NCBI GenBank assembly: GCA_902530685.1
Contig: CACAAZ010000004.1
Span: 1 to 62,569, forward strand
DNA length: 62,569 bases
Direction: 5' to 3'
From: an uncultured Alphaproteobacteria bacterium
Lineage (GTDB): Bacteria; Pseudomonadota; Alphaproteobacteria; HIMB59; GCA-002718135
The translations under genes and the position numbers were made by a program. Below, piece after piece: positions 20,313 to 45,961 of the stretch. The notes beneath the pieces were generated by a model. It searched no databases. It had not been told where the DNA came from and worked only from the letters and a program-made list of their open reading frames with translations. Each line of letters opens with the position of its first letter. Position 1 is the first letter of the stretch.

Positions 20313-21538
20313 AATCTATTTGGTGAGTAAGCTTCAATGTTAATATTAGGAGTCTTATCATTTGATATTGTACTTACTATTTTTCCCGTTATTGCACCTA
20401 GAGTCCAACCTATGTGTTGATGACCGAAAGCATAGATAATATTTTTATTTTTAGATGACGCACCAATAATAGGTAAAGAATCCGGCAGTGTTGGTCTTCT
20501 ACCCATCCATGTTGATTTTATTTCTCCTAGTTGGGGTAAGACTTTTCTGGATTGCCGTTCAATCATTTTAATTCTTTTTAAATTAGGTTTCTTATTTATA
20601 CTTGCTATTTCTACTGTGCCTGCTGCTCTTACTCCATTATGAATTTGAATTAGGTAAAAACCTGACTCGGACCATGCAACAGGTCTTTTAATTAGTTTTT
20701 CATTAGTATTAAAAAGGATATGATATCCTCTCTCTGTATCAAGAGGGAAGTTTTCTCCAAGCATATTAGCAATTTGATTAGACCAAGCTCCTGCACAGAT
20801 AATAATTTTATCAAAATTAATTTTTTTGTTTTCTAAAGATAAATGTATACTATTTTCTTTCTGAATAAGATTAGTTACATTTTGCTTTATGTAGATGCCA
20901 CCTAATTCTAGAAACTTATCAAAAATTTTTATGCTTATTGCTAAAGGATTTGTTGTATGTCTTGATCCAGTAAATAATTGACCTGCATAATAAACATCGG
21001 CAATATTTGGCTCTAATTCTTTAACTTCCTCTTTGCTTAAATTTCTTACCTTAACTCTATTTTTTTTTCTAATGATATTGGCATATTCGTAATCGTGTAA
21101 CGATTTTTTGGTATCAAATAAATATAGATTTTCTTCATGGCTAATATACTCTTGAACATTTACTTCTTTAAATATTTCGTCATAAGATATGTGAGAATGT
21201 TTTAATAAGTTTGTGAGTGAACTAGCTATTTCATCAACTTTTTCTTGTTTACAATTTTTTAAGAAACTTAATGCCCAGGGTAAATTTTTAAGAATATAAA
21301 AAAAATCTACTGTCAGAGGCCCATCTTTTTTTAGAAGCATTTTAGGCACATCCCAAATTAATCCAGGATAGTTCACAGGTACATTAGCATAATCAGCAAA
21401 ACTACATGCATGACCAAAGCTTGTCATCGTGCCAGGGTCTTCTCTATCAATAAGAGTTACATTAAATCCAGATTTTTTTAAAAAATAAGCACTACAAATT
21501 CCAACAATTCCTGCACCAACAACAGCAATACTTTTCAC
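20309..21538 (-). CDS. DadA-family FAD-dependent D-amino-acid dehydrogenase/oxidase
   Basis: VVGAGIVG, TSFGHA, AGAWS, PLDTERGYH, WMGRRPTLPDSLPIIG, AFGHQHIGWTLG; GTG start 4 nt after the potC stop. Confidence 0.88.
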   Translation of the reverse strand: MKSIAVVGAGIVGICSAYFLKKSGFNVTLIDREDPGTMTSFGHACSFADYANVPVNYPGLIWDVPKMLLKKDGPLTVDFFYILKNLPWALSFLKNCKQEKVDEIASSLTNLLKHSHISYDEIFKEVNVQEYISHEENLYLFDTKKSLHDYEYANIIRKKNRVKVRNLSKEEVKELEPNIADVYYAGQLFTGSRHTTNPLAISIKIFDKFLELGGIYIKQNVTNLIQKENSIHLSLENKKINFDKIIICAGAWSNQIANMLGENFPLDTERGYHILFNTNEKLIKRPVAWSESGFYLIQIHNGVRAAGTVEIASINKKPNLKRIKMIERQSRKVLPQLGEIKSTWMGRRPTLPDSLPIIGASSKNKNIIYAFGHQHIGWTLGAITGKIVSTISNDKTPNINIEAYSPNRF

Positions 21539-21542
21539 AAAT

Positions 21543-22439
21543 TTATCGAGATTTAATACCTCGAAGTCTCTCAGATCTTCTTCTCAATAGCTCAACAGTT
21601 GTCAATAAAATAATGGAAAGTACGACTAAACAAGTTGCCATACATAAGATGACGGGGCTAATTTCTTGACGTATTCCAGCCCACATTTGTTTTGGTATTG
21701 TAAGCTGATCGATACTTGCCATAAACATTACAATTACAACTTCATCAAATGAAGTAATAAAGGCAAATAAAGCACCAGATATAATTCCTGGTAAAATTAA
21801 TGGCATAATAACTTTAAAAAATGTTCTTAATGGTTTTGCGCCTAAGCTTTGAGAGGCTTTAACCATATTCATATCAAAACCAACTAATGTTGCTGTTACT
21901 GTGATTACAACAAAAGGTGTGGCAAGTGCAACATGGGCCAAAATTACACCAGTAAACGTATAAACAAGATTTATTCTAGCATAAAAAAAGAACATTCCAG
22001 CTGCAGTTATGATTAGAGGGACAATCATAGGTGAAATAAGGATCGACATTATCAAAGCTTTATAAGGCATGTGAGGTCTACTTAATCCAAGAGCTGCCAT
22101 TGTTCCTAGTCCTGTTGCAATAGCAGTGGCTATTATTCCTATATAGAAACTATTTACTGTTCCTACCATCCATTTTGTTGAACAAGGTACAGTAGTTGAA
22201 ACAACATCAGCACTGCAATCACCAATCATATTTCTATACCATCTCGTCGACCAAGCTTCTGGTTCAGGTGGCCATGCTAACATACCTTCTGTAAATACCA
22301 TGAATGGTGAAACACTAAATGATATAGGAACAATAGCAAAGAGTGGAGCTACTAAGAAAAAAAATACGAAAGCACAAAAAAATAAATACGCATAATAGTA
22401 TGTTCTTTGTATTGGTGTTGCGTAACTTGGAAGTGCCAT
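21543..22439 (-). CDS. potC: PotC-like ABC transporter permease
   Basis: ISPMIVPLII, ASQSLGA EAA-loop variant, FITSFDEVV. Confidence 0.85.
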   Translation of the reverse strand: MALPSYATPIQRTYYYAYLFFCAFVFFFLVAPLFAIVPISFSVSPFMVFTEGMLAWPPEPEAWSTRWYRNMIGDCSADVVSTTVPCSTKWMVGTVNSFYIGIIATAIATGLGTMAALGLSRPHMPYKALIMSILISPMIVPLIITAAGMFFFYARINLVYTFTGVILAHVALATPFVVITVTATLVGFDMNMVKASQSLGAKPLRTFFKVIMPLILPGIISGALFAFITSFDEVVIVMFMASIDQLTIPKQMWAGIRQEISPVILCMATCLVVLSIILLTTVELLRRRSERLRGIKSR

Positions 22440-22441
22440 TT

Positions 22442-23707
22442 TTATCCTAGTTTAATATTATCTATACCTACTATTTTATTATATAACCAATAAAAAATAA
22501 GCATGAAACCTAAAAGTATTGCTCCAAGTGCAGCTGTTAAGCCCCAATTAAGAGTTGTCTTTAGATGATATGCAATCCAACTGCCTATCAACTTACCATC
22601 TTTTCCTCCTACTAGCTCAGGAGTAATAAAATAACCTATAGCTAAAACAAAAACGAGCAGTCCCCCTGCACTCATTCCAGGAATAGTTTGAGGTAAATAA
22701 ACTTTCCAAAATGCCATTGCTGGTTTAGCCCCTAAATTTTGAGCAGCTCTCATGTGACTTTTAGGAATGACTCTCATAACACTGTATAAAGGCAATATCA
22801 TAAAAGGTAACAATATCTGTGTCATAGCGATTAGAGTACCTGTTTCATTATAAACCATTGAAAGCCTTCCTTCCTCACTAATAATACCTAACCAAACCAA
22901 AACTCCATTTATGACTCCATTCTGTTGGAGCATTACGATCCAAGCAGTTGTTCTAACTAAAAGTGATGTCCAGAAAGGAAGTAAAACAAAGATCATTAGT
23001 AGGTTGCTATACCTTAGAGGTAGATTTGCGAGGAGATGAGCAACTGGAAAACCTAAAATTAAACAAAAAGCTGTAACATAAACACTTACTTTTAAAGTTT
23101 TAATCCAAGTCTGTACGTAAACTCTTCTATTTTCTTCTTGCTGTACAACGTTAAGATTTTCATCAAATGTTCTATCAATAGCATTCCAATAATATATTGA
23201 TGTTGTATTATTAATCATTTGACCCATTGCATACCAATATGTTGGGTCTGCCCATTTTTCATTAGTTTCGATTAAAAACTCTTTGTAGTTATCTGGAAGC
23301 TCATCTTTTTTTACAGCTTTCTTAATTGCTCTTGATGTTTTTTTTATCAAACTTTTCCAACCAGATTTAGAGTAGTTCATTCTAGTTAATGCTCTACCAA
23401 CCTTAACTTTATCGCCAGATGCAAGTTCTTGAAACAAGGCTTTATAGACTTCCTCAGGTGGTAACTCGTCTTTTGATTTGTCCCATTTTCTATATTCCTC
23501 GAATGTTTTTGGGAATACTGTGTTTATCTGGCTATCATCCACACTACGAAGAAGCATATCTCCAATAGGCATGACAAAAGTTACAATTATAAAAAGCAAA
23601 AGGGGAAATACTAATAAGAATGCTCTTATTTTATTTCTTCGCTCAGCTTTTTTTAAACTTTGCTTTAGCGGTACTCCATCAGTAGTTAATAGTTCTGCTG
23701 TAGAAAT
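22442..23707 (-). CDS. potB: PotB-like ABC transporter permease; probable non-canonical ATT start at 23707 (the ORF track starts at TTG 23599)
   Basis: LLPFWTSLLVRTTAW, LPFMILPLYSVM, AAQNLGA; the frame is open for 36 more codons up to ATT, which is preceded by AGGAGG-TTTT. Confidence 0.85.
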   Translation of the reverse strand: MSTAELLTTDGVPLKQSLKKAERRNKIRAFLLVFPLLLFIIVTFVMPIGDMLLRSVDDSQINTVFPKTFEEYRKWDKSKDELPPEEVYKALFQELASGDKVKVGRALTRMNYSKSGWKSLIKKTSRAIKKAVKKDELPDNYKEFLIETNEKWADPTYWYAMGQMINNTTSIYYWNAIDRTFDENLNVVQQEENRRVYVQTWIKTLKVSVYVTAFCLILGFPVAHLLANLPLRYSNLLMIFVLLPFWTSLLVRTTAWIVMLQQNGVINGVLVWLGIISEEGRLSMVYNETGTLIAMTQILLPFMILPLYSVMRVIPKSHMRAAQNLGAKPAMAFWKVYLPQTIPGMSAGGLLVFVLAIGYFITPELVGGKDGKLIGSWIAYHLKTTLNWGLTAALGAILLGFMLIFYWLYNKIVGIDNIKLG

Positions 23708-23717
23708 AAAACCTCCT

Positions 23718-23750
23718 AAAATAAAAAGGCGAGATAAATCTCGCCTTTAA
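23718..23750 (-). terminator. intrinsic terminator/attenuator between potD and potB
   Basis: (-) strand AAAGGCGAGA-TTTA-TCTCGCCTTT followed by TTATTTT. Confidence 0.8.
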
Positions 23751-23779
23751 ATTAAATTATTGTTTTTAATTTATCAAGC

Positions 23780-24883
23780 TTAGTTACCCATCCAAGCTGA
23801 ATAACGTTCATTAATTTCTGCACCGTAGTCTGACCACCATTGTGGATCACTCACGATTGAAACTTTTAAACGCTCTGGCGTGTTAGGCATATGAGGCATA
23901 ATATCTACACCGCCAGGACCCCAAGGCTCATTTGCTTCGATAATTGGAATACCTGATGCTCTCATAGGTCCATAAGTAATGTATTTAGCTTGTTCAGCTT
24001 GTGCTTCAGGAGTTGAAGCATGGAACATAAAGTCAATTGCTGCATCTCTATTAGGAGCTCCAGACATTAGACATAAATATTCTTGGTCTAGTACTTGACC
24101 TTCCCAAATATATTCAAAGTTTGCACCTTCTGCTAAGTTAGCTGCACCTACACGACCGTTATACGCAATAGACATAATAACCTCTCCACTTTTAACAAGT
24201 TCAAGTGGTTGTGCACCTGCTGACCAGAATACAACATCATCTTTAATTGTATCTAGTTTTGCAAAGGCTCTATCAATCGCACCTGTTTGATTAGCTAAAA
24301 CTGTTGGTACTGCGCTTGGCTTTACACCATCTGCTACCATCGCTTTTTCAATTATACCAGTCGCCCACGTATGGACACCTCTTTTACCTGGGAATTTTTC
24401 CACATCAAAGAAGTCAGCAATTGTTGATGGTTTTTCACCTGGGAATGCATCTGGATCAAAGAACACAACATAAGTCCAGAAAATTTGCGGAACACAACAA
24501 TCCCAACCTGAGTGATACTCAAGTCCGTTGTTTTCCATATCTTCTGCCATTGACTCACCGTCAGGACCCGGAGCAGCACCTGCTGCAATTTCTGCTGAAA
24601 TGTCTTCGAAAAGACCTTCATCACAACCTGTGATTGCATCAGACGGTAATGCATCAACTAGATCCCAAGTTACACTTCCACTTTCTACTTGAGCTCTTAC
24701 TTCACCTAAACCTCCGTTGTAGTTTTCAAAGACAATTGAGCTAGGATCAGAATATGTATTAGCATAAGCTTTTTGTTGACTTTCTGTATAAGCACCACCC
24801 CATGATGCAACCGTTACAGCGCTAGCTGCAAAAGGAGCAAAGACAAGTGACACAAATAAGAAGGCTTTTAAAAATTTAGACAT
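23780..24883 (-). CDS. potD: PotD-like ABC solute-binding protein (polyamine or osmolyte)
   Basis: Signal peptide, VTVASWGGAYTESQ, VTWDLVD, DFFDVEKFPGKRG, AYNGRV; AGGAGG SD. Confidence 0.85.
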   Translation of the reverse strand: MSKFLKAFLFVSLVFAPFAASAVTVASWGGAYTESQQKAYANTYSDPSSIVFENYNGGLGEVRAQVESGSVTWDLVDALPSDAITGCDEGLFEDISAEIAAGAAPGPDGESMAEDMENNGLEYHSGWDCCVPQIFWTYVVFFDPDAFPGEKPSTIADFFDVEKFPGKRGVHTWATGIIEKAMVADGVKPSAVPTVLANQTGAIDRAFAKLDTIKDDVVFWSAGAQPLELVKSGEVIMSIAYNGRVGAANLAEGANFEYIWEGQVLDQEYLCLMSGAPNRDAAIDFMFHASTPEAQAEQAKYITYGPMRASGIPIIEANEPWGPGGVDIMPHMPNTPERLKVSIVSDPQWWSDYGAEINERYSAWMGN

Positions 24884-25010
24884 ATATATCCTCCTATTTT
24901 TAATTAATTAATCTTAAGATTATGTCCGTAATATTTATTGTAATAACATGTTGAAACTTGAAAAAAAAGGGCAAATAACGATAAATTTCTGTAAATTGGT
25001 GTTTGTTTAA

Positions 25011-26096
25011 CTAAATATCCAAAGCTCTTACATCATCAGGATTCCAGCTTAAATTAAGCTTATCTCCCTCTTTGTGACTGAAGCTTCCTTCATTTGGAAC
25101 CTTAACAATAAATTCATTATTTCCACACACATCAAGTCTTGCTCTAATATGATCACCTAAGTAAATTAATTCTTCGATTGTTCCTGAAAAATTGTTTGCT
25201 TCTGATTTTGTGCTATCTATAATAACTCGCTCTGGTCTAATTGAAAGCTGAGTTTTATCTCCAACATTATCAACATTAATCTTCAAAGCTTTAACTGAAC
25301 CATACCCTGATTCTAGATCAACGGTACAAACATTTCCATTAATTTCTTTTACAACTCCATTGAGAGTATTATTTTCTCCAATAAACTTTGCAACAAAAGA
25401 ATTTTCTGGTTTTTCATATAAAATATCTGGTGTAGATAATTGTTGGACAACGCCATCATTAAAAACTGCAATTCTATTAGACATTGTTAATGCTTCACTT
25501 TGATCATGTGTCACATAAACAACAGTTATGCCAATTCTATCGTGAATGTGTTTTATTTCATATTGCATTTGCTCTCTTAGATTTTTATCTAATGCTCCAA
25601 GAGGCTCATCCATTAAAACCAGTCTGGGCTCAAAGACCAATGCTCTAGCTAAGGCTACTCGTTGCTGTTGTCCACCAGATAATTGTGCGGGGAAACGAGT
25701 TCCAAAATTACCTAACTCTACCATATCAAGTGCTTTTTGAACTTTCTCCTTTGTTTCAGATTTAGATATTTTTCGAACTTCAAGAGGAAAGGCTAAATTT
25801 TCTTGAACTGTCATATGTGGAAATAATGCATAATTTTGAAATACCATGCCTATTTCTCTTTCATAGGGAGGTATTTTACTTATTGGCATTGAATCTAAAT
25901 AAATTTCACCATTAGTTGGTGTTTCAAAACCAGCTAACATCATTAATGTTGTAGTTTTGCCAGAACCTGATGGGCCAAGCATAGTTACAAATTCACCCTT
26001 CGCAATATCTAAGTTTAAATTTTTAACAACTAATACCTCGCCATCATAACTCTTATCTATTTTTTTAAATTGAACGAAACTATTATCTTGCTTCAT
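25011..26096 (-). CDS. potA: PotA-like ABC transporter ATP-binding protein
   Basis: GPSGSGKTT, VFQNYALFPHM, LSGGQQQRVALARA, LMDEPLGALDKNLRE, C-terminal TOBE region. Confidence 0.9.
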   Translation of the reverse strand: MKQDNSFVQFKKIDKSYDGEVLVVKNLNLDIAKGEFVTMLGPSGSGKTTTLMMLAGFETPTNGEIYLDSMPISKIPPYEREIGMVFQNYALFPHMTVQENLAFPLEVRKISKSETKEKVQKALDMVELGNFGTRFPAQLSGGQQQRVALARALVFEPRLVLMDEPLGALDKNLREQMQYEIKHIHDRIGITVVYVTHDQSEALTMSNRIAVFNDGVVQQLSTPDILYEKPENSFVAKFIGENNTLNGVVKEINGNVCTVDLESGYGSVKALKINVDNVGDKTQLSIRPERVIIDSTKSEANNFSGTIEELIYLGDHIRARLDVCGNNEFIVKVPNEGSFSHKEGDKLNLSWNPDDVRALDI

Positions 26097-26166: not shown

Positions 26167-27045
26167 ATGTACTTTTTTGGTGTTTTATTAGCTTTAGCAG
26201 CAGGTATTTTTTTTGGAATTATAGGTCCGATGACAAAATTTTCATATAATGCTGGAGCAACTGTTGAACAAGCAATTTTTTTTCGATTTATAATAGCATC
26301 TTTAATAGTTTTGCCACTTGTCCCTTTTCAAAAAAACCTAATTAGGAATTATTACAAAAATTTTAAAAATTTTATTATTATTTCAATTGGTTCAATTCTA
26401 CTTACATCCGGTTTGCTTATTTCTTTTACCTTAATAGATGTAAGCTTAGCAGTATTAATTTTCTGCTTATATCCAGTCTATGTTTTATTATTTTCAATAT
26501 TTATTGATAAAGAGAAAATTAGACTAGTAATTAAACTTCTTTTTTTAACAACATTTATAGGTTTAATTTTTGTTTTAGGACCATCACTAAATATTCCTAA
26601 TATATATGGTATTTTATGTGCGTTTATTGCATCATTAGGATCTGCAACGATGATAATTACAAATCAAAAAATATCTAAAAAAAAAATACCTCCTATACAA
26701 ATAAATATTTTTGTAAATTTTATTAATTGTATTTTTTTTTATTTAATTTTAAGCTTATTTTTTTCTTTAACAGTTTTCGTAAAACTAAATATATTCATTC
26801 TCATATTATTACCTTCTATAAGTTATAGTATTGCACTTTTAAGTCAATTTTTTGCTATTCCAAAAATAGGTCAATCTAATACCGCATTATTTTTATACTT
26901 AGAACCTGTTGTAGGCGTGCTAGGTGCATATTATCTATTAAGGGAAAAACTTGAATTGTATCAAATTATTGGAGCTTTAGTGGTAATTATAAGTCTTTTG
27001 TTAGCTTCTATTATTAACAATAAAATTAAAAATGTAGTTTCATAA
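26167..27045 (+). CDS. DMT/EamA family transporter
   Basis: About 10 hydrophobic segments in two repeats; LYLEPVVGV..LLREKL motif. Confidence 0.85.
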   Translation: MYFFGVLLALAAGIFFGIIGPMTKFSYNAGATVEQAIFFRFIIASLIVLPLVPFQKNLIRNYYKNFKNFIIISIGSILLTSGLLISFTLIDVSLAVLIFCLYPVYVLLFSIFIDKEKIRLVIKLLFLTTFIGLIFVLGPSLNIPNIYGILCAFIASLGSATMIITNQKISKKKIPPIQINIFVNFINCIFFYLILSLFFSLTVFVKLNIFILILLPSISYSIALLSQFFAIPKIGQSNTALFLYLEPVVGVLGAYYLLREKLELYQIIGALVVIISLLLASIINNKIKNVVS

Positions 27046-28012
27046 ATTTCAACCAGTTATGTCCTAGAATTTTATAAATAGTTTTTTCACTAATTGAATT
27101 TTTTTGCAAAATATAGAATAAATTTTTTAAATCACTTGGTTGTTTAAACCAACTAGGGAGCTCTGGCCATTTTGGATTTTTATCTTTTGATTCCCCATAG
27201 TCAATTTTTTTTGTCCATTTACCATTTCTCATCCACATTACTATGTCATCAGGCCAGTTAAGACACAAGTCTGAGCCGATGCCAATATTGTCTTCTCCAA
27301 TAATGTTAATTAATTTTTTTATCATTTCACAAAAATCTTCAGGCTCACATTTACCATGATCTTTTAAGTGATAAGGATAAAGACTTAATCCAATAAAACC
27401 ATCTTTGCTAGCAAGCTTTTTTAGTATATCGTTATCTATATTTCTAATTGATTTATGAAAAAAAGATGGATTAGCGTGAGATATTGCAACTGGTTTTTCC
27501 GAAATCTCAATAGTATCTAAACAAGTTTTTTTTCCTGCGTGACTTAAATCAATAATCATTCCTAATCTGTTCATTTCTTCAATAACAGCACATCCAAATC
27601 TAGATACTCCAGAGTCTTTTGGCTCAAAACAACCTCCACCTAATGGCGTTTGATTGTTATAAGTAAGCTGCATGAAGCGTAAGCCTTCTAAAAAAAACTT
27701 TTCAACTAAAAAAATATCATTTGCAATAGGTGCAGAGTTTTGGAAACCAAAAATAATTGCAACTTTATTATTTTTTTTTGCATGTAAAATATCTTCTGTA
27801 GTTTTCGCGTGTGCAATAATGTCATGATGCTTTTTAAAAAGATGGTGCCAATAATTTATTTTTTCGAAAGACTCTTCAGTATTTTCCCAATACACTAATG
27901 TCGCATGGATTGCGGTTAATCCAGCTTGGTGGGCATTTTCAAATAATTCCCTATTCCAGTTACAATATTCTAAACCATCAATTAAAAGTATATCTTCAGT
28001 TATTTTTGACAT
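27026..28012 (-). CDS. membrane (renal) dipeptidase family, peptidase M19 / amidohydrolase superfamily
   Basis: LIDGLEYCNW, IFGFQN, MQLTYNNQ, MNRLGMIIDLSH, PVAISHANP, IGIGSD. Confidence 0.88.
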   Translation of the reverse strand: MSKITEDILLIDGLEYCNWNRELFENAHQAGLTAIHATLVYWENTEESFEKINYWHHLFKKHHDIIAHAKTTEDILHAKKNNKVAIIFGFQNSAPIANDIFLVEKFFLEGLRFMQLTYNNQTPLGGGCFEPKDSGVSRFGCAVIEEMNRLGMIIDLSHAGKKTCLDTIEISEKPVAISHANPSFFHKSIRNIDNDILKKLASKDGFIGLSLYPYHLKDHGKCEPEDFCEMIKKLINIIGEDNIGIGSDLCLNWPDDIVMWMRNGKWTKKIDYGESKDKNPKWPELPSWFKQPSDLKNLFYILQKNSISEKTIYKILGHNWLKFMKLHF

Positions 28013-28066
28013 AGATTAATACTTCTATTAATGAAAAAAATAAAATTAACTATAGATATTTAATAA

Positions 28067-29731
28067 ATGTTTCAAAAAGTAAGAGAAAACAGTAACTACA
28101 TGAAACTATCAAGAATGGGTTCGCGATATCCCTCTCGCCTTAGTTTTTCTAGAAGTATGTTAAGAAGATTAATCAACGATAGCTGGGAAATACATAAGTC
28201 AAAATTTGATTTAGATAAAGATGGTTACGGTACAGTTGTTTATGAAATTATTATTAATAAACAAACTTACTCACTTGTATGTTTCTCTACTTTTCTAGAT
28301 GATAAAGATAGAAGCGATAGAGTTATCGCTAGTAAATGGGATACAGCCTATACATTACACATAGGTAAATTATCTAATGAAGATCTTAATAGATTAAAAA
28401 GAACAATACCACTCCAAGAATCAGGTCGAAATTCTCCAAATGAATTAATTCTTAGCAGAGCAAATAAAAGTGTAAGATTGTTTCAGTATGTTGTAGATTG
28501 TCTATCAAATGGTAATCAACCAGATATTTACGAAATAAATAAAGTTGGCTATTTATTAAGAACTACTGCTGTTTATGGAAGTGGTAAATTTGGGTTATCA
28601 GATTTTACTAATACTAAAAATACAACTGTTTTTAATCAGCCATTTAGGGCAGAAATGTTATCAGTTTATTTAATTAGAGAATTCAGTATTGAATTAGTTG
28701 AACACGTTGCTAGGAAAATTGATCCAAAAAAAGCAGTAAAGTTAGACAGAAAAATTAAACAACATTTAGGTATTGGTAATTCAACAGGTTTAGGAATGGC
28801 ACCCTTTATCATCAAACATCCAAAGTTAATTAATAAATGGATGAATCAGTATATAAAGACATTACAGGAAATTTCTGAAATTAAATTAGATAATGTAGTG
28901 TTTGAAAAATATAAAAAACTTTTAGACAAAGCTCTTAATTATCTTGAAGAAGTTAACACAAATGATCAATTCCAAATAAATAAAAATAAAATAACCATTG
29001 AAGATTTAAAAAAATATATTTTCTATATTAATGACTTAGATCTTTCTAAAAGATTTAGATGGTTAGATATTTTAGACTATTGTGATTCGAATTTTAATGA
29101 TGATACTCAAGAAATTGCTAGAGTACAACTAATTGAATTGTATCCTCAAATATCAGAAGAATTAGCAGAGGATATGGCAGATGAAGAGATAATGGATATT
29201 GACGGAAATCAATCTATTGGAGATTTGAAAAAAATAATTAATGATAAATATTCTTGGATAAAAAATATCGATTTTAAAAATAAAGATAGCAATTACTTAT
29301 TTTGGTATGTTTCAGCAGCAAAATTAGAACCTAGACTAGGTGAAAGATATAATGAACAAGGAAGTGAATTGGAGCAAAAACTTGGAATTGCAAAAATGGT
29401 CAGTGATTTATTTAAAAAAATAAAAAATGTAGATGGAAATCAATTAATATGTGAATTTTTATTAATGTATCCAGAATACAGAGGAATTGTTAAGAGAATT
29501 CAATCTTTAAAGAATTATCCTTATTCAGAAGTTCAAGATAATGTTCTCGATAAAAAAACAATACCAATTGATATGTTAAGATTTAAATTATCTTTTTTTG
29601 GTGCTAATCGCTATGATCCTAAGTCGGATAGATGGTTAAGAGTAAGTTTTTTTTCTGGAGCTCCTTATTTATCAGACCTAAATAATAAAAATGTTGATGA
29701 ATGGGGTTTTGCTACAATGAATTCATATTAA
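28067..29731 (+). CDS. hypothetical protein (554 aa), function unknown
   Basis: Long ORF with enzyme-like blocks RLSFSRSMLRR, RSDRVIA, RANKSVRLF, GYLLRTTAVYGSGKFG, LGIGNSTGLGMAPF, FWYVSAAKLEPRLGER, KLSFFGA..DPKSDRW; no motif of known function recognised. Confidence 0.85.
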   Translation: MFQKVRENSNYMKLSRMGSRYPSRLSFSRSMLRRLINDSWEIHKSKFDLDKDGYGTVVYEIIINKQTYSLVCFSTFLDDKDRSDRVIASKWDTAYTLHIGKLSNEDLNRLKRTIPLQESGRNSPNELILSRANKSVRLFQYVVDCLSNGNQPDIYEINKVGYLLRTTAVYGSGKFGLSDFTNTKNTTVFNQPFRAEMLSVYLIREFSIELVEHVARKIDPKKAVKLDRKIKQHLGIGNSTGLGMAPFIIKHPKLINKWMNQYIKTLQEISEIKLDNVVFEKYKKLLDKALNYLEEVNTNDQFQINKNKITIEDLKKYIFYINDLDLSKRFRWLDILDYCDSNFNDDTQEIARVQLIELYPQISEELAEDMADEEIMDIDGNQSIGDLKKIINDKYSWIKNIDFKNKDSNYLFWYVSAAKLEPRLGERYNEQGSELEQKLGIAKMVSDLFKKIKNVDGNQLICEFLLMYPEYRGIVKRIQSLKNYPYSEVQDNVLDKKTIPIDMLRFKLSFFGANRYDPKSDRWLRVSFFSGAPYLSDLNNKNVDEWGFATMNSY

Positions 29732-29736
29732 AATCA

Positions 29737-30417
29737 GTGAGTTATTCTTACTATGAAGTCTACACCAATACACAACGAGCTTTTTCTGGATTAGGGTTCA
29801 CTTATGGATCAGATGAAGATGCTGCATTTATTACAACCTGGCTTGAAGTATTTGGTTTGGATGGGATCAAATTATTAACATTAAAAATTGAAGAGTTAGA
29901 TAACAATTTTAATCCTAGCATAGATCCATCAAAAATAAATGATGAGTTTGATTGTAAAAATAAATCTTTTTTGGTGATAGGACCAGGTTTAATTGATTAT
30001 TTAATATCAAAAATAGATAAAAGGGATGATTTAAAATTAACTTTTAAAAATTGTAATGACCCTATATTCCTTTTACCTTTACTTTACAAGTATGCCAAAA
30101 AAAATATCTATTCACAGTTTTTGTTAGATAAAAAAATTGATGCACAAATAACAAATAAAAATATTAGTATTAATAGAGATATTATCTCTACAAATTATCA
30201 AAGGAATTTTGATCTTTTACTCACAAAGAAAATTTTAAATGAACAAAGGTTAGATGTTAATATTCCATCATCAAATATTAATAATATGCTCTCTAAGGGT
30301 ATTAATCCTGATGAAAAATCTTGGAATCAAATATCTAAGATAGCTTTTAGAACTTTTGTTCCAGAGTCAGAGGAATCTAGAGCAAAAGGTGCTGGAGGTG
30401 GTGATGCAAACGATTAA
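29737..30417 (+). CDS. DUF3726-like protein
   Basis: N-terminal SYYEV..TQRAFSGLG..G.DEDAA...WLE..GLDG and C-terminal RTFVPESEESRAKGAGGGDAND match DUF3726 as I recall it; GTG at 29737 is the likelier start than ATG 29701. Confidence 0.7.
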   Translation: MSYSYYEVYTNTQRAFSGLGFTYGSDEDAAFITTWLEVFGLDGIKLLTLKIEELDNNFNPSIDPSKINDEFDCKNKSFLVIGPGLIDYLISKIDKRDDLKLTFKNCNDPIFLLPLLYKYAKKNIYSQFLLDKKIDAQITNKNISINRDIISTNYQRNFDLLLTKKILNEQRLDVNIPSSNINNMLSKGINPDEKSWNQISKIAFRTFVPESEESRAKGAGGGDAND

Positions 30418-31589
30418 TTTACGATATGTAAATCTCTTGGAACATTTGTAAGTAATTCAAAGCCATTTTCAGTTACCCTCACAGACTCACTTAGCTCAAG
30501 TCCCCATGTATCCATCCACATTCCACACATGAGGTGGTATGTTACGTTAGGATACAATAATGTTTTCTCATTTTTTCGAATACTTAGTGTGTGCTCTCCC
30601 CAATCTGGCGGATAGCCAAGACCAATTGAATAGCCAGCTCTTGATTCTTTTTCCAATCCATATTTTTCTAATACTGACCAAAAAGCAACTGCTACATTAT
30701 GACAACTATTACCTGGTTTAGTTTGTTCCAAGGCTCTCTCAATACCTTCATTAGTTATTTTTAATGTATCTGATATTTTTGGATCAGGCTTTCCTATGTA
30801 AACTGTTCTTGATAAGGCACAATGATAACGATGTTTTACACCTCCTAGTTCAATTATAGTGCCTTCATTATTTTCAAATTTTTTTTCACTTGGCGTTAAA
30901 TGTGATGCAGAGGCTGATCTTCCACTTGCGAGTATAAGTCCCAAACCAGCATATTCTCCACCCATTTTTGTTTCATCATTTCCGGCAATAAGGGTATTAT
31001 GAATTTTTCCAGCGACAGTACTTTGTTTTACTCCTTCTTTGATAGAATCAAAAGCAGTTTGCATTCCAGCTCTAACAAGAACTCCTGCATCCTTCATATA
31101 TTTAATCTCACTTTCCGACTTAATGTATCTTACCCAGTTGATAAGAAGATGAGCATTAATAAATTTAGCATCTGTTAAATTATTTTTTAATCTGCTATGA
31201 TTTTCAGCAGTATAATAATAACTATCCATTTCTACACCGATGCGGTTGGATGACCATTTTTTATCTTTAATTAATTGAACTACATAATCATAAGGGTGTA
31301 ATGGCGGAGATTGTATAAGATTTTCAGGATAACCATAAATATTTTCATCATATAAAAAAGTAGTTATTCTTGCCCCATTTGAATCTTGTTTTCTTCCAAA
31401 CCAATAAGGCTGGTCCTCGTCAATTGATATGATTATACCTTGTGGTACATAAAATGACCAACCATCATAGCCAGTTAGGTAATTCATATTTGATGGATCA
31501 GTACTAATTAAAATATCTATACCTTTTTTAGACATTGATTCTTTAACTTTTTTAATTCTAAGATTGTATTCTTCTTTTGAAAAAATCAT
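30414..31589 (-). CDS. doeA: ectoine hydrolase DoeA/EutD (M24 pita-bread fold)
   Basis: FSKEEY..R, DPSNMNYLTGYDGWSFY, WFGRKQDSNGA, RYHCALSRT, SRAGYSIGLGYPPDWGEHTLS, GMWMDTWGLE. Confidence 0.85.
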   Translation of the reverse strand: MIFSKEEYNLRIKKVKESMSKKGIDILISTDPSNMNYLTGYDGWSFYVPQGIIISIDEDQPYWFGRKQDSNGARITTFLYDENIYGYPENLIQSPPLHPYDYVVQLIKDKKWSSNRIGVEMDSYYYTAENHSRLKNNLTDAKFINAHLLINWVRYIKSESEIKYMKDAGVLVRAGMQTAFDSIKEGVKQSTVAGKIHNTLIAGNDETKMGGEYAGLGLILASGRSASASHLTPSEKKFENNEGTIIELGGVKHRYHCALSRTVYIGKPDPKISDTLKITNEGIERALEQTKPGNSCHNVAVAFWSVLEKYGLEKESRAGYSIGLGYPPDWGEHTLSIRKNEKTLLYPNVTYHLMCGMWMDTWGLELSESVRVTENGFELLTNVPRDLHIVN

Positions 31590-31604: not shown

Positions 31605-32171
31605 TTATCTTTCTGATATTTCGTATCCAAATTGGTATGCTGTTTCAAGTAGGATCTCCCAAGTTGAAAGTGCAAAACCTCTAGGTATAAATAGTTGAAA
31701 ATTATTTTTAGAAAATTTTAATAACTTTATATTTACATGATGAATAGCAGAACTAGCAGAAGAATTTGCTTTGAATACTGACTCTCTTAGATCAATAGGT
31801 AAAAATCTGTTTAAAAGTAATGTGGTATTTTCTCCAGTTATATTAATTGATGTATATGCATGTGATAAATCTAAATTAGTTCCTAAATGATCTGGAAGAT
31901 CTAAATTATTTTTTAATATCCACCATTTTAGTGGCTCTATTCTCCAAATCGAATTTTCATCATTTAATATTCCCTCATTGAAGTGTGGAACTTTCTCAAT
32001 GTTTAGTTTTTCTTTTATATATGTTTCTGATTGAAATAAAGTATCTGGCCAACAAGCTATCTGCTTAAGATTGAGGTTTGTAGTTTCCTTAAATTTTATG
32101 GTTACATTATTATTAATAGGAAAGCTACCTGGTTTATATGAAGTATCTAACGATGAGGATCTATCAACCAT
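31605..32171 (-). CDS. soxG: sarcosine oxidase subunit gamma
   Basis: DLSHAYTSINITG, PIDLRESVF, IPRGFALSTWEIL; ATG 32171 overlaps the soxA stop. Confidence 0.8.
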   Translation of the reverse strand: MVDRSSSLDTSYKPGSFPINNNVTIKFKETTNLNLKQIACWPDTLFQSETYIKEKLNIEKVPHFNEGILNDENSIWRIEPLKWWILKNNLDLPDHLGTNLDLSHAYTSINITGENTTLLLNRFLPIDLRESVFKANSSASSAIHHVNIKLLKFSKNNFQLFIPRGFALSTWEILLETAYQFGYEISER

Positions 32172-35130
32172 GCATTCTCTCACCTTTTGGATCAAGCATG
32201 TGAGAAGATACTACTTGAATTTCAATTTGTTTGTTTCTAATCGGATCACTGCCAATTACATTAATATTTTTCCATTCTTCAACACCACCCTTTATAAATC
32301 CTAAGCCAATCCAATGTCCTAATTCGGGTGAATGAGTAACTGAAGTAATTCTACCAACACCGAAACCTTTTATATTATTTTTTTCACAAATTATTGTTCC
32401 GGAAGCAAAAGTATCATTCTTATTAACAGGAAAAAAACCCACTAGCTTTTCTCTATCTGAAGCACTTAAAACTCCTCTTTTTCTCAATGCGCTACCGATG
32501 TACGATTTCTTATCTGATGCCATTTTTCCTAAACCCACATCATCAATAGTTGTTCGACCATCAAGTTCAGCACCTGTTACATGTCCTTTTTCAATTCTAA
32601 GTGCACCTAGAGCTTCAACACCATATAAACACCCATCAAATTGTTTTGCGGATTTCCATAAAATATCCATCATTATATTTGCATAATCTGCTTGAATATA
32701 AATTTCAAATCCGAGCTCACCAGAAAAACTTATTCTAGCAATTCTACATGGAATTCCTCCCTTAAGTGTAGCTGAGATAAAACACATGAATGGTAAATTT
32801 TCATTAGATATCGTAGAAGGATCTTCTAAACATTGGCTTAAAACATCTCTTGTCTTTGGGCCAGAAATAGCTGCTACACCCCACTGCTCAGAAACACTTG
32901 TCACATTGACTTTTAAATCAGTCCATCGTACTTGAAGTAATTCTTCTAACCATGACATTACTTTTCCTGCCTGGGATGTTGAAGTTGTCATAAAATATTC
33001 ATTATCTGACAACCGCCAACAAGTACCATCATCTAAAACTATACCATCATCACGTAACATAATTCCATATCTCGTTTTATTTATTGGAAGTTTAGCAAAA
33101 GCATTAGTGTAAATTCTATTAATAAATTCTGTTGAGTCAGGTCCTTGAATAGCTATTTTACCTAATGAACTAACATCACATATACCTACTGTTTTTCTAA
33201 CTGTTGCAGCTTCTCTGATGTATGCCTCATCTATGGTCTCATTGCTTTTAGGAAAATACCATGGTCTATCATATAAACCAGCATCAATCATTGTTGCTCC
33301 ATTTTCCAAATTCCATGCATGCATTGGAGTAGTTCTAAGAGGCATGAAGTGTTTTCCAACACTCCTACCGGCTAATGCACCAATAGAAACAGGAGTAAAG
33401 GGTGGACGAAAAGTTGTAGTACCTACCTCTGGAATTTCTTTTCCAAGCAAATCTGCCATTAAAGATAAACCTATTATATTACCCATCTTACCTTGATCAT
33501 TTGCCATGCCTAAAGTTGTATAACGTTTTAAATGTTCAACTGATATAAATCCTTCTCTATGTGCTAAGCGTACATCATCACAGATTACATCATGTTGAAA
33601 ATCTACGAAACTTTTTGAGCGAGTTTTTTTTGATTTAACTTCATATAAAGGTTCGATTGGATTCATCCAGCCACCTTGTTTTGGAAAAAAATAATCTGTT
33701 TTTGATATTCCAAGTTTATTAATTGCATCTAAAGTACCTGCAATTCCTGAGTCAATACAATCACCTTTACCCCATATCCCTCTAGCAGAACCTATAACTG
33801 TAATATTTTCTTTGGGTTCTCCAGGTACAAAACATAAATTTTCTGTGTCCCAAACTGGACGCACTCCTCGATGAGATAATAGATGGACTGCAGGTGACCA
33901 TCCACCTGACATTAAGACCTGATCACATGTAATTGTATCTATTTTATTGTATTTTGAATTTATCGAGTTGGCGATATCTAAACTATTTATTTTTTTAGAA
34001 CCATTAATGTTATATGGAACAACACCATTTATTACTTCAAAATTATTTTTGTTTAAATCTATATTTGTTTCTTTGCGATTATCTAAAACTATTACATTTG
34101 CTCCAGCTTTTGCTAATATTTCTGCTGTTGAATATACTGAATCATTGTTAGTTGTAATTACAATTTTTTTCCCAGTTAATACACCATATCTATTTAAATA
34201 ATGTTTAGATGCGTTTACAGTCATTGAACCAGGGACATCATTATTATTAAATGCGATATGTCTTTCAAAAGAACCTGATCCGATTAAAACATGTTTAGCT
34301 CTAACAATCCAAAATCTCTGCTTTGGCAATCTTCTATCTGAGAGGGTAACGTTTTCTTCAACTCTTTCTACCAAACCTAACACACAATTATCGTACAAAC
34401 CAAATGCGGTTGTTCTTTTCATAACTCTTACACCAAGACTTTTTAGTTCTTTGAAAGCTTCGTCAGAATTAAATTCACTCTCAGATAATTGATCGCCTCC
34501 TATCATATTGTCCTGTTCAACAAGTATGACATCAAGTTTTCTATCAGCAGCTTCTTTAGCAGCAGCGATACCTGCAGGACCAGAACCGACTATAAGTATA
34601 TCACAGTGATCATTTGCATGTTCATACACATCTGGATCAGGTAAACGAGAACTTCTTCCCATACCAGCAGCTTTCCTAATGAATTTTTCAAAAAACATCC
34701 AAACAGATGTACCAGATCCCCACTCAAAAGGTGGAATTCCCATGAAAGTCTTGTAATAAAAACCTGCAGGAACAAATCGACTTAATAAGTTATTAATAGA
34801 AGCGAGATCAAAATTTACACTTGGGAATGCATTTTGGCCAGAAGCAATTAAACCTTCGTATAATTCTTGAGAAGTAACTCGAACATTTGGTTCTTTTCTA
34901 TCCCCAGTACCAATGGTTACCAATCCACCAGACTCCTCCACTCCACATGACATTATACCTCTAGGTCGATGATATTTAAAACTTCTTCCTACTACTCTAA
35001 TGTCATTAGCTAATAGAGCTGAAGCAAGAGAGTCACCTTGATAGCCAAAATAATTTTTATTTTCCCAACTAAATTTCAATTGTTTTTGACGATTAATTTT
35101 ACCAAAATTTTCTATTCTTCTTGAGCTCAT
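32164..35130 (-). CDS. soxA: heterotetrameric sarcosine oxidase / N-methylglutamate dehydrogenase subunit alpha
   Basis: GDSLASALLAN, GRSFKYHRPRGI, AGFYYKTFM, EHLKRYTTLGMANDQGK, TTFRPPFTP, GcvT-like C-terminal domain. Confidence 0.93.
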   Translation of the reverse strand: MSSRRIENFGKINRQKQLKFSWENKNYFGYQGDSLASALLANDIRVVGRSFKYHRPRGIMSCGVEESGGLVTIGTGDRKEPNVRVTSQELYEGLIASGQNAFPSVNFDLASINNLLSRFVPAGFYYKTFMGIPPFEWGSGTSVWMFFEKFIRKAAGMGRSSRLPDPDVYEHANDHCDILIVGSGPAGIAAAKEAADRKLDVILVEQDNMIGGDQLSESEFNSDEAFKELKSLGVRVMKRTTAFGLYDNCVLGLVERVEENVTLSDRRLPKQRFWIVRAKHVLIGSGSFERHIAFNNNDVPGSMTVNASKHYLNRYGVLTGKKIVITTNNDSVYSTAEILAKAGANVIVLDNRKETNIDLNKNNFEVINGVVPYNINGSKKINSLDIANSINSKYNKIDTITCDQVLMSGGWSPAVHLLSHRGVRPVWDTENLCFVPGEPKENITVIGSARGIWGKGDCIDSGIAGTLDAINKLGISKTDYFFPKQGGWMNPIEPLYEVKSKKTRSKSFVDFQHDVICDDVRLAHREGFISVEHLKRYTTLGMANDQGKMGNIIGLSLMADLLGKEIPEVGTTTFRPPFTPVSIGALAGRSVGKHFMPLRTTPMHAWNLENGATMIDAGLYDRPWYFPKSNETIDEAYIREAATVRKTVGICDVSSLGKIAIQGPDSTEFINRIYTNAFAKLPINKTRYGIMLRDDGIVLDDGTCWRLSDNEYFMTTSTSQAGKVMSWLEELLQVRWTDLKVNVTSVSEQWGVAAISGPKTRDVLSQCLEDPSTISNENLPFMCFISATLKGGIPCRIARISFSGELGFEIYIQADYANIMMDILWKSAKQFDGCLYGVEALGALRIEKGHVTGAELDGRTTIDDVGLGKMASDKKSYIGSALRKRGVLSASDREKLVGFFPVNKNDTFASGTIICEKNNIKGFGVGRITSVTHSPELGHWIGLGFIKGGVEEWKNINVIGSDPIRNKQIEIQVVSSHMLDPKGERMHG

Positions 35131-35132
35131 AA

Positions 35133-35411
35133 CTATTTTTCAAATACTTTTTGAAGTTGTGTGTGGCAAGGTTTAACACTCTTAATTTCATGAGTTATTG
35201 TTGAACGCTCGACTTCTAACCACATTCTACAACCATTTGAGTGTTGCCAAGTTTCTCTTTGAATGCCTTTGATATTTTCTCTAAAAAAGACTGCTTCAAC
35301 CCAATCTTTTTCTGGTGCATCTAAACTTGGATAAACTATTGATGCGTCACTTCCATAACTAAACTCGCTATGATCTCTATCTCCACAATAAGGGCATTTT
35401 ATTATTATCAT
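35133..35411 (-). CDS. soxD: sarcosine oxidase subunit delta
   Basis: CPYCG..EF and WQHSNGCRMW zinc-binding motifs. Confidence 0.92.
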   Translation of the reverse strand: MIIIKCPYCGDRDHSEFSYGSDASIVYPSLDAPEKDWVEAVFFRENIKGIQRETWQHSNGCRMWLEVERSTITHEIKSVKPCHTQLQKVFEK

Positions 35412-35414
35412 AAT

Positions 35415-36683
35415 TTAACCATGCATTTTTGGATCAGGGCCACTACCACTCTCATCAATATTAATACCTTTTTCAAATCTCTCTAAATTATGATTGGCAA
35501 TTACTTTATGAGGTCTTTCATTTGCTATTAAGTCAGCAAAATACCAGCCAGAAGCTGGACTTGCTTTAAAACCACCATAATTCCAACCTGCGTTTAAGTA
35601 CAAGTTTTCAACTGGTGTTTTGCACATAAAAAAAGATCCATCCATACTCATGTCCATCACTCCAGCCCAATGTCTTAACAATCTTAGTTTTCCAAGACAC
35701 GGCATTATTGCCATTGCACCCTCACCATTTTCTTTTACAGTTGGCAAGTTTCCCCTTTGAGCATAAGACTTGTACCAATCTAGCTCACCTCCAAATACCA
35801 TGCTTCCTTTATTTGTTTGAGAAATATAGAAATGTGCGGCACCAGCAGGAGCGTATATTAATACACAATCCAAAAGAGGTTTAACAGCCTCTGTAACAAA
35901 CGCCTGTAACTTATGAGACTCTATCGGTAAATTACCTAACTCTGCCATTTGCCATAAGACAGATGTATGACCAGCAACAGCAAATCCAATTTTTTTGCCT
36001 TTTATATCTCCCCTAGTAGTTTGCAAACTTTCTATTGATCCATTCTTACGTGTCACTCCAGTAACTTCACAATTCTGTAATATATCTACACCAAGTGAGT
36101 CAGCTGCCCTTGCATATCCCCATACAGCAGAGTCGTGCCTTGCATTACCAGCACGAGGTTGAACAATTGCTCCTAAAATTGGGAAACGGCCATTATCATA
36201 ATTAAGGTGAGGTATTTTATTTTTTAGTTTATTTAAATCCCACAACTCACCATCTGAACCAGTAAGTCTCATAGTGTTGTAACGTCTTGCAAAAGAATCA
36301 AGAGCACCTGGGTTGTTAATTAAAAGCACATGAGATCGCTGACTAAACATAACATTGTAATTCAAATCATGGCTTAAGTTTTCCCATAATCTTAATGTAT
36401 GTTCATAAAATTCTCTATTACCCGGCATCATATAATTTGATCGTACAATTGTTGTGTTACGCCCTGCATTACCACCACCAATCCAACCCTTTTCTAAAAC
36501 TGCAACATTATGCATGTTATGATTTTTGGCTAGGTAGTAAGCGGTAGCTAGTCCATGTAATCCTCCCCCCACAATAACTGCATCGTAAGATGCTTTTGGT
36601 TCTGGATCACGCCATTGTCTACTCCAACCTGAATTACCATTAAAGCCATTTTTAATTACATTCCAAGCATTGAATCTAGTCAT
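35415..36683 (-). CDS. soxB: sarcosine oxidase subunit beta
   Basis: WRDPEPKASYD, GGGLHGLATAYYLAK, GRNTTIVRSNY, ARHDSAVWGYARAA, PIESHKLQA. Confidence 0.93.
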   Translation of the reverse strand: MTRFNAWNVIKNGFNGNSGWSRQWRDPEPKASYDAVIVGGGLHGLATAYYLAKNHNMHNVAVLEKGWIGGGNAGRNTTIVRSNYMMPGNREFYEHTLRLWENLSHDLNYNVMFSQRSHVLLINNPGALDSFARRYNTMRLTGSDGELWDLNKLKNKIPHLNYDNGRFPILGAIVQPRAGNARHDSAVWGYARAADSLGVDILQNCEVTGVTRKNGSIESLQTTRGDIKGKKIGFAVAGHTSVLWQMAELGNLPIESHKLQAFVTEAVKPLLDCVLIYAPAGAAHFYISQTNKGSMVFGGELDWYKSYAQRGNLPTVKENGEGAMAIMPCLGKLRLLRHWAGVMDMSMDGSFFMCKTPVENLYLNAGWNYGGFKASPASGWYFADLIANERPHKVIANHNLERFEKGINIDESGSGPDPKMHG

Positions 36684-38969: not shown

Positions 38970-38994
38970 TCTATTTTCTCCATTTAAATAAATA

Positions 38995-40149: not shown

Positions 40150-40151
40150 TT

Positions 40152-41597: not shown

Positions 41598-41600
41598 AAT

Positions 41601-43525: not shown

Positions 43526-43534
43526 TTTGATATT

Positions 43535-44689: not shown

Positions 44690-44694
44690 GAATA

Positions 44695-45852: not shown

Positions 45853-45961
45853 ATATTTTCTCCTCAAATATTATATATTTAAATTTTAATTATAGCTTTG
45901 AAAAAAGCAATATTTAATCATATTAATAATGATATTATTTAATTTTTTTTAAAAGGTATTA

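Follow-up and report, generated by a model that had tools for sequence, protein, structure and literature searches.

A divergent homC/homB-homA arrangement in a low-G+C alphaproteobacterial lineage probably belongs to the homarine catabolic pathway

Three adjacent genes in a 62,569-nucleotide (nt) stretch of DNA from an uncultured Alphaproteobacteria bacterium (hereafter the window; contig CACAAZ010000004.1 of GenBank assembly GCA_902530685.1, G+C ~30%) are probably homC, homB and homA of the pathway that breaks down homarine (N-methylpicolinate), a reading to which we give a probability of roughly 0.8. The first, homC (27026-28012, minus strand), encodes an M19-fold amidohydrolase-like protein of 328 amino acids (Pfam PF01244, E 7.3e-71). 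The second, homB (28067-29731, plus strand; 1,665 nt), encodes a 554-residue protein without a Pfam, NCBIfam or PDB relative, our candidate for the catalytic subunit, and the third, homA (29701-30417, plus strand; 717 nt), a 238-residue DUF3726 protein (PF12525, E 7.8e-10) with a predicted, shortened Ldh_2 fold. An earlier note, made from the sequence alone, had taken the trio for an orphan, uncharacterised module; it would instead be homC, homB and homA of a pathway already published (PMC13236597). The layout described in that note agrees with the coordinates of the open reading frames (ORFs): homC is divergent from the homB-homA unit across an AT-rich spacer of 54 bp (28013-28066), and an EamA-family transporter gene (26167-27045, plus strand; PF00892, E 4.6e-27) is convergent with it, the two genes sharing 20 nt. 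The motifs quoted there (TTAVYGSGKFG, LGIGNSTGLGMAPF, EPRLGER, DPKSDRW and the tail GAGGGDAND) are all present in the translations, where they occupy alignment columns that are invariant, or almost so, in the HomB and HomA families.

The homABCDER operon, with homT, was described as the homarine catabolic operon by Ferrer-Gonzalez et al. (Nat Microbiol, March 2026; PMC13236597), on whose main text we draw here. According to that text, SPO3188-3192 of R. pomeroyi are homA, homB, homC, homD and homR, and ACFLL8_11490-11520 of Cobetia sp. OBi1 are homE, homA, homB, homT, homC, homD and homR. The general order is homR, then homD homC (homT) homB homA (homE), with a homA of ~700 nt, a homB of ~1,700 nt, a 'peptidase'-like HomC and an aldehyde dehydrogenase (ALDH) as HomD. 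The same paper surveys 11,755 genomes, in 97.7% of which homA adjoins homB, with profiles for the two genes that it reports to be specific. SAR11 and SAR116 carry the operon, homE being missing from every one of 120 Pelagibacter genomes. Growth on homarine was lost in knockouts of homB, homC, homD and homR. Labelling showed that the homarine ring is opened with its N-methyl group kept, by way of intermediates of formula C7H9NO5, C6H9NO4 and C6H9NO3, and the product, N-methylglutamate, is converted to glutamate by the N-methylglutamate dehydrogenase mgdABCD, often misannotated as soxBDAG. To tell the two enzymes apart, the paper takes as verified references TSOX of S. maltophilia and Corynebacterium and mgd of Methylocella, Methyloversatilis, SPO1585-1588 and Cobetia. 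The paper also gives a confident AlphaFold model of a HomA-HomB heterodimer and environmental homB transcripts that track homarine concentration and are assigned to streamlined alphaproteobacteria (PMC13236597).

Our assignment of the trio to homC, homB and homA follows from size, order, partners and family, all of which match this published operon. The lengths of homB and homA fit the published sizes, the two genes overlap or abut, and the M19-like gene 54 bp from homB answers to the peptidase-like homC. Both published orders were also reproduced among the loci that we fetched, the Cobetia order in L025 and the R. pomeroyi order in L022 and L033 (L-numbers denote fetched loci and G-numbers sampled genomes; contigs C3 and C18 belong to the window's own genome). 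In the literature searched, neither a mention of 'DUF3726' nor a biochemical study of Hom proteins later than that paper turned up.

The module occurs far beyond chance. At E <= 1e-3 there are 1272 cluster representatives of the 554-residue protein, and a tblastn search based on an alignment of 13 closer rows confirmed it at 598 genome loci. In an even sample of 401 genomes of the phylum, HomB was found in 31 (34 copies), DUF3726 in 30, all of them within those 31, and a high-scoring HomC in 31 of 31; a lower-scoring M19 paralogue occurs without HomB or HomA in 20 further genomes. HomA directly follows HomB in 31 of the 34 copies, and all 31 DUF3726 matches begin within ~110 nt past the end of the HomB gene. 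The sole HomB-positive genome without a DUF3726 match (G377) has an unrecognised ORF of 240 residues at that place. The M19 gene lies within ~4 kb of homB in 18 of 18 fetched loci and adjoins it in 77 of 80 named loci, the exceptions being two loci cut by contig ends (L068 and L088) and a genuine one (L083). An ORF of 150-340 residues with the HomA N-terminal motif follows homB in 75 of the 80. Both the phylogenetic profile of the trio and its synteny elsewhere, points that the earlier note had raised, come out in favour of a conserved module. Annotation with Pfam of the neighbours in eight loci gives a recurring operon of divergent LysR, ALDH, M19, often BCCT, HomB and DUF3726, followed by a RidA-family or full-length Ldh_2 gene.

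Two side observations concern the spread of HomB. Homologues with an adjacent M19 gene were seen in Chloroflexota (Promineifilaceae), Actinomycetota (Ilumatobacter, Acidimicrobiales), Campylobacterota (Poseidonibacter) and 'Deltaproteobacteria' metagenome-assembled genomes (MAGs) (L057, L117, L078, L092, L110, L076, L082). Some Rhodobacteraceae-type genomes (G132, G160, G278) carry two HomB copies; the second copy at L037 has an M19 gene and a 172-residue partner, without HomD or BCCT, and such second copies may form a subfamily with another substrate.

HomB gave no match in searches of Pfam, NCBIfam and the PDB, and only unnamed clusters in a protein atlas; a homologue search returned mostly near-identical marine sequences (92-96% identity), none of which supplied an annotation. 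The AlphaFold2 model has a predicted local distance difference test score (pLDDT) of 95 and a predicted TM score of 0.94, and it gave no Foldseek match at E <= 1e-3, flavin monooxygenases included. No known family or solved fold was found by the profile and Foldseek searches that had been suggested for this protein. A wide search with VIA reached Z 6.0 at best; the matches were mostly GNAT acyltransferases at Z ~5, with urate oxidase at 5.7, and all lie in the chance range. A GNAT relationship is not claimed, since such Z values commonly arise by chance.

A FastTree phylogeny of HomB was built from 69 of 98 rows, the other 29, at least 80% identical to a kept row, having been left out. The window lineage forms a group of five rows with support 100 inside a starred 28-row set that includes Pseudomonas, Marinobacter and Halofilum operons carrying HomD; the other half of the tree holds Pelagibacteraceae, SAR116 and Rhodobacteraceae. 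The closest copies, from single-cell assemblies of uncultured Alphaproteobacteria, share 92-93% identity with window HomB; four more distant relatives, two 'MarineAlpha5' MAGs among them, share 58-69%.

HomB and HomA appear to behave as halves of one two-subunit enzyme, because they are strictly adjacent and are also found naturally fused. Among the 150 best HomB representatives, surveyed with a hidden Markov model built from our own HomA alignment, 43 are at least 690 residues long, and 32 of these 43 carry a HomA-like domain C-terminal to the 554-residue part. One representative that is a natural fusion has 804 residues. Pfam detects DUF3726 in 8 of 16 long forms scanned, five of them above the cut-off. 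The possible two-subunit enzyme of the earlier note is supported by the adjacency in 31 of 34 copies, by these fusions and by the confident AlphaFold heterodimer in the main text of PMC13236597.

We next turn to HomA, which matches PF12525 over residues 16-76 with 39 bits against a cut-off of 22.1. Its AlphaFold2 model has a pLDDT of 90.6, with a mean of 63 for residues 1-10. The start of homA may be the GTG at 29737 rather than the ATG at 29701: the GTG lies 5 nt past the homB stop, where relatives begin, and the ATG overlaps homB by 31 nt. Compared by VIA, HomA aligned with eight Ldh_2 chains over 194-206 residues at Z 12.8-14.4, the next best match being at Z 5.1. In Foldseek, all 18 rows listed down to rank 26 were Ldh_2-family proteins (E from 1.3e-4, probability 1.00), and a profile-profile comparison of HomA with full-length Ldh_2 neighbours gave E 6.3e-5. 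Window HomA has no Pfam Ldh_2 match; two HomA homologues have sub-threshold ones (E 6.1e-9 and 1.5e-8; 34.6-35.9 bits against a cut-off of 38.8). HomA has a five-residue gap opposite 'GVASHG' of full-length Ldh_2 enzymes, the His of which is presumably catalytic. At the other end it has a conserved C-terminal tail, ESR..GAGGG.DAND in the window and W..VP.TEESR..GAGAG..DND in the family. These comparisons suggest that HomA is a cut-down subunit with an Ldh_2 fold, that of an NAD(P)H-dehydrogenase family, and not a flavin reductase. The main text of PMC13236597 speaks of binding motifs for flavin adenine dinucleotide (FAD) in HomA and draws a parallel between HomAB and the flavin pair TgnAB. Neither a flavin-reductase fold (Flavin_Reduct) in HomA nor a flavin-monooxygenase fold in HomB was seen, HomB staying at VIA Z <= 6.0.

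HomC belongs to M19 by family, at 239.4 bits against a PF01244 gathering score of 26, with profile positions 39-318 matched and 1-38 unmatched. Its best PDB match is 2i5g_A, an 'amidohydrolase', end to end at E 2.7e-58. The binuclear zinc ligands of M19 enzymes such as human renal dipeptidase (1itq) are an N-terminal HxD, a bridging Glu, two His and an Asp. HomC and 2i5g both lack the HxD and have IDGL.. in its place (the N-terminus of HomC reads IDGLEYCNW). 'GFQNSA' of HomC aligns with 'GVEGGH' of 1itq, giving Gln for Glu, and the later His, His and Asp are kept in 'DLSHAG', 'AISHAN' and 'GSD'. HomC thus seems to have only part of the M19 binuclear zinc site, half of it being missing. The identification of the gene as an M19 dipeptidase stands for Pfam family membership and falls for the complete binuclear site, both HxD and Glu being absent.

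The window lineage carries a reduced and rearranged version of the hom operon. Divergence of homC and homB is confined to this lineage (L040-L051), the two genes being co-directional in the other loci among the 80 named ones. The spacer sequence hardly changes among the nearest relatives (L040, L041, L044, L045), and L047 and L049 retain parts of it; its palindrome TTAATA-N4-TATTAA, with six-base arms in DNA of 27% G+C, is weak evidence for an operator. On the other side of homC, the EamA gene is kept in L040-L050 and is more divergent than its neighbours (39-67% identity versus 63-93% for homB). Next to it lies a PotABCD-like ATP-binding cassette (ABC) transporter with two permeases, an SBP_bac_8 binding protein (23780-24883) and an ATPase by Pfam (21543-26096, minus strand), a block conserved with the hom genes in L040-L050. 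A transporter of this type also adjoins the hom genes of L035, L071, L074 and L082, and in L071, L074 and L082 its permeases are 48-67% identical; these four loci come from several unrelated lineages without the BCCT transporter HomT. From this gene context, the ABC transporter is a candidate uptake system replacing HomT. ABC transporters receive no mention in the main text of PMC13236597; nor are the Ldh_2 fold of HomA, the lack of a solved relative for HomB or the missing homD found in that main text.

An ALDH gene at 18879-20312 (plus strand) lies 6.7 kb from homC, inside the 10 kb within which homD would be expected, and best matches and a tree agree that it is not a HomD orthologue; another ALDH gene of the window is at 55296-56747. 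Its best matches in hom-bearing genomes are other ALDHs (44-48%), with hom-adjacent ALDHs at 33-35%. In a tree of 46 rows, 31 M19-adjacent ALDHs form one starred clade (SH-like approximate likelihood ratio test, 99). The ALDH at 18879-20312 falls outside this clade and was rejected as homD. A homD criterion based on BLAST alone, like that of PMC13236597, might count such a paralogue. Alpha- and gammaproteobacterial HomD proteins share 60% identity (559 bits). An orthologue of the window ALDH in G176 (48% identity) lies ~4 kb from the hom cluster there (L038 14866-16353). In the window the gene is paired with a DAO-family FAD oxidoreductase gene on the minus strand (together 18879-21538), upstream of the ABC transporter. 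The close relatives L040-L050 keep the DAO gene together with their hom block, but their 7-kb flanks stop short of the ALDH.

The earlier note had named doeA and soxBDAG as neighbours, and doeA-like and sox-like genes do follow homA. The doeA-like gene (30414-31589, minus strand) encodes an M24/creatinase-type hydrolase (Pfam M24 and Creatinase_N) that scores 460.7 bits with the NCBIfam ectoine hydrolase model TIGR02993, below the cut-off of 613. It is missing in 4 of 9 complete close relatives (L040, L045, L046, L048), where homA abuts the sox-like operon, and is probably a variable insertion rather than a part of the hom module. The sox-like operon itself (31605-36683, minus strand) contains soxG/A/D/B-like genes for all four subunit types by Pfam and NCBIfam, and looks like mgdDCBA. 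We built a beta-subunit tree of 16 rows from 24 matches, leaving out eight near-duplicates and labelling rows by gene context. The window falls in a starred eight-row clade (100/99) with the G332 operon and the hom-adjacent operons of G176 (L131) and L115. By Pfam, the neighbours of the G332 operon are GlnA-like, Glu_synthase, GXGXG and GATase genes, the layout of gmaS-mgsCBA in the N-methylglutamate pathway. Scored against solved sarcosine oxidase (2gag_B, 1vrq_B), the window beta subunit reaches 395 bits and that of the mgs-linked G332 operon 445, followed by L134 with 494, the genome's second operon on contig C3 with 616 and L132 with 631. The gamma subunit has no Pfam SoxG match in the window or G332, and that of the C3 operon has one. 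This second soxBDAG operon (G000 contig C3, L136 4722-11606) lies beside a formate-tetrahydrofolate ligase gene. On balance we favour reading the window operon as mgdDCBA, encoding N-methylglutamate dehydrogenase, with the C3 operon as the true sarcosine oxidase.

A scheme can be proposed for how homarine is taken apart. N-methylglutamate keeps C2 to C5 of homarine together with the carboxylate, and C6 should therefore be lost and the C5-C6 and N1-C6 bonds broken. HomB and HomA, as one two-subunit enzyme, would make the first attack on the pyridinium ring, activating it and opening it oxygenolytically to an N-formyl-N-methyl enamine aldehyde (C7H9NO4). An ALDH would oxidise this aldehyde to C7H9NO5, and HomC would then remove formate to give N-methyl-dehydroglutamate (C6H9NO4) or, if it acted before the ALDH, C6H9NO3; an imine reductase would complete the route to N-methylglutamate. 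Such a scheme would account for all three reported formulas. The part of HomC would be C-N hydrolysis, for example formyl removal or the opening of a cyclic amide, and a RidA-type HomE could alternatively hydrolyse the imine. Full-length Ldh_2 genes stand beside hom operons in Rhodobacteraceae-type loci (L027 6746-7747, L033 10954-11964, L038 10919-11980), and RidA-family genes flank gamma-type loci (L021 15133-15567, L025 11630-12028); an intermediate N-methyl-iminoglutarate might be reduced or hydrolysed by the products of these flanking genes. The window's genome has one full-length Ldh_2 gene, on contig C18. In the window, the adjacent sox-like operon would finish the pathway as N-methylglutamate dehydrogenase, and the neighbouring ABC transporter would import the substrate.

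The N-methylpyridinium ring of homarine chemically resembles NAD+. In a more far-reaching reading, HomBA would be a novel, flavin-free type of pyridinium ring opener, HomA binding NAD(P)H and passing hydride directly to the N-methylpyridinium and HomB oxygenating or hydrating the dihydropyridine and breaking the C5-C6 and N1-C6 bonds; homC, homB and homA, with the ABC importer and the adjacent N-methylglutamate dehydrogenase, would take homarine to glutamate without HomD. We regard this far-reaching reading as rather doubtful.

Several points weigh against assigning the trio to the homarine pathway. Pfam finds no LysR, RidA or BCCT domain anywhere in the window, so that homR, homE and homT are not adjacent. 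None of the eight ALDHs of the 56%-complete assembly falls inside the HomD clade, and in five related assemblies (1.0-1.6 Mb) the best match to HomD has 36% identity and 284 bits. Window HomB is only ~45% identical to Pelagibacteraceae copies and 37-42% identical to alpha- and gammaproteobacterial copies in hom-type operons. With ~45% for Pelagibacteraceae HomB against 92-93% for the closest copies, regarding the window as canonical Pelagibacteraceae is unsupported. Orthology to the tested Hom proteins (SPO3188-3190 and ACFLL8_11495-11510) is argued from operon order, gene size, family specificity and the HomB tree. The mgd assignment rests on the 16-row, context-labelled beta-subunit tree, which contains no biochemically verified mgd sequence. 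Moreover, the roles given to all Hom enzymes are putative, and the Ldh_2 fold predicted for HomA does not support the account of FAD motifs and a TgnAB-like pair in the main text of PMC13236597.

Some of these points would also suit a different substrate. The same enzyme family could here have a cyclic imino compound or an N-methylated pyridinium other than homarine as its substrate, HomCBA delivering an N-methyl amino acid to the Sox-like enzyme. The want of a HomD orthologue, an orientation and a transporter that differ from other loci, and the ~40% identity of window HomB to copies in operons of the tested order would all fit, and the genomes with two HomB copies, one of them without adjacent HomD or BCCT (L037), make subfamilies possible. 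We nevertheless judge this unlikely: HomB retains every residue that is invariant or nearly so in the family, its tree puts the window lineage with gamma-type operons that carry HomD and not with second copies like L037, and the homB transcripts that follow homarine were assigned to streamlined alphaproteobacteria (PMC13236597). The missing accessory genes could alternatively mark a decaying remnant of a hom operon that has lost homD, homR and homT and no longer functions. That is scarcely credible, as the three ORFs are intact, their conserved residues are kept and the AlphaFold2 models are very confident; eight related single-cell or metagenome assemblies also preserve the block, with proteins 83-93% identical, as do four more distant assemblies with 58-69%.

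The earlier note had proposed an uncharacterised catabolic step on an N-methylated osmolyte that feeds Sox, and had pointed to the M19 gene PA5396; spelled out, this would be a step in the breakdown of glycine betaine, dimethylglycine, sarcosine or ectoine that supplies sarcosine oxidase. The doeA-like and sox-like genes next to the trio lend this some colour. So does 2i5g_A, the best match of HomC: its 325 residues are the length implied by the 978-nt PA5396 gene, and 2i5g is probably PA5396 itself. PA5396, PA5397, dgcA and dgcB form one operon of dimethylglycine catabolism in P. aeruginosa (PMC13492115). However, the M19 proteins of the 20 HomB-negative genomes form a lower-scoring group within the subfamily (185-254 bits, versus 237-349 beside HomB), and these dgc-type proteins are 34-37% identical to HomC. 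In the one dgc operon examined (G079, L141 709-9598), an AraC-type regulator and the M19 paralogue are accompanied by DUF5943, DgcA, DgcB and an electron-transfer flavoprotein (ETF). DUF5943 sits where P. aeruginosa has PA5397, annotated as 'hypothetical'. Compared by hhalign, DUF5943 and HomA proved unrelated (probability 0.5%), for which reason PA5397 was rejected as a HomA; in the loci annotated, HomB or HomA was never seen beside DgcAB. The analogy thus reduces to paralogy, and HomC and the dgc-operon M19 proteins are, to judge by their sequences, paralogues serving different pathways. The doeA-like gene, as noted, is missing from 4 of 9 close relatives, and the genetics and metabolomics of the gene set in PMC13236597 point to homarine, so that the betaine reading is already largely refuted and we hold it to be very improbable. 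What survives of it is an N-methylated zwitterionic metabolite, though homarine rather than a classical betaine or osmolyte (PMC13236597), and a product, N-methylglutamate, demethylated by a Sox homologue, though not by sarcosine oxidase itself; the adjacent soxBDAG resembles N-methylglutamate dehydrogenase.

Elsewhere in the window, genes for catabolism of the imino-acid or ectoine type are densely packed behind the sox-like operon (36793-45867, minus strand). It includes a Pro_racemase-family protein, which scores 433.9 bits with the trans-3-hydroxyproline dehydratase model against a cut-off of 550, three more M24/creatinase-type hydrolases, an M20 peptidase, two pyridoxal phosphate enzymes and an ornithine cyclodeaminase/mu-crystallin protein. 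Two proteins with a glutamine synthetase catalytic domain (3182-4507 and 14389-15747, both minus strand) may be GmaS-type gamma-glutamyl-amine ligases, which would bear on the metabolism of methylamine and N-methylglutamate.

Phytoplankton produce homarine in abundance, and the hom route links it to marine carbon and nitrogen cycling; to our knowledge, the hom genes are the only bacterial route from homarine to glutamate. The window adds no new system: the hom module is real, conserved and ecologically important, and its function is already published, with the enzyme chemistry still unsolved. What the window does show is a stripped-down homC / homB-homA arrangement in a streamlined, very abundant marine alphaproteobacterial lineage of low G+C. 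Hypotheses for the ring opening are narrowed by the predicted Ldh_2 fold of HomA, the lack of a solved relative for HomB, the frequent fusion of the two and the partial metal site of HomC.

Compared with the hom operon of PMC13236597, the window has the same adjacent homB and homA, an M19 gene beside them and a linked Sox-like N-methyl amino acid dehydrogenase; it differs in its divergent homC, in the want of a homD orthologue and of homR, homE or homT nearby, and in the ABC and EamA transporters that stand there instead. HomB homologues also reach past the Alpha- and Gammaproteobacteria that the main text of that paper emphasises. The M19 protein of the PA5396 type, with 2i5g, belongs to the same subfamily as HomC and, like it, to an operon for N-methylated compounds; its partners are DUF5943, DgcA, DgcB and ETF, those of HomC are HomB and HomA. 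With the Ldh_2 family (PF02615), which comprises type-2 malate/lactate dehydrogenases, YiaK, ureidoglycolate dehydrogenase and delta1-piperideine-2-carboxylate reductase, HomA would have the fold in common, but it has 238 residues versus ~335, adds a family-specific C-terminal tail and is always partnered with HomB. TgnAB is said to have been described by Perchat et al. in 2018 as the two-component ring-opening system of trigonelline catabolism, and C7H9NO5, seen with homarine, is by our calculation also the formula of the trigonelline intermediate (N-methylformamido)methylene-succinate. In both routes the ring of an N-methylpyridinium carboxylate is opened with the N-methyl group kept, the analogy proposed in the main text of PMC13236597. 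Unlike what a TgnAB-like pair would suggest, HomA has a predicted Ldh_2 rather than flavin-reductase fold, and HomB matches no solved fold.

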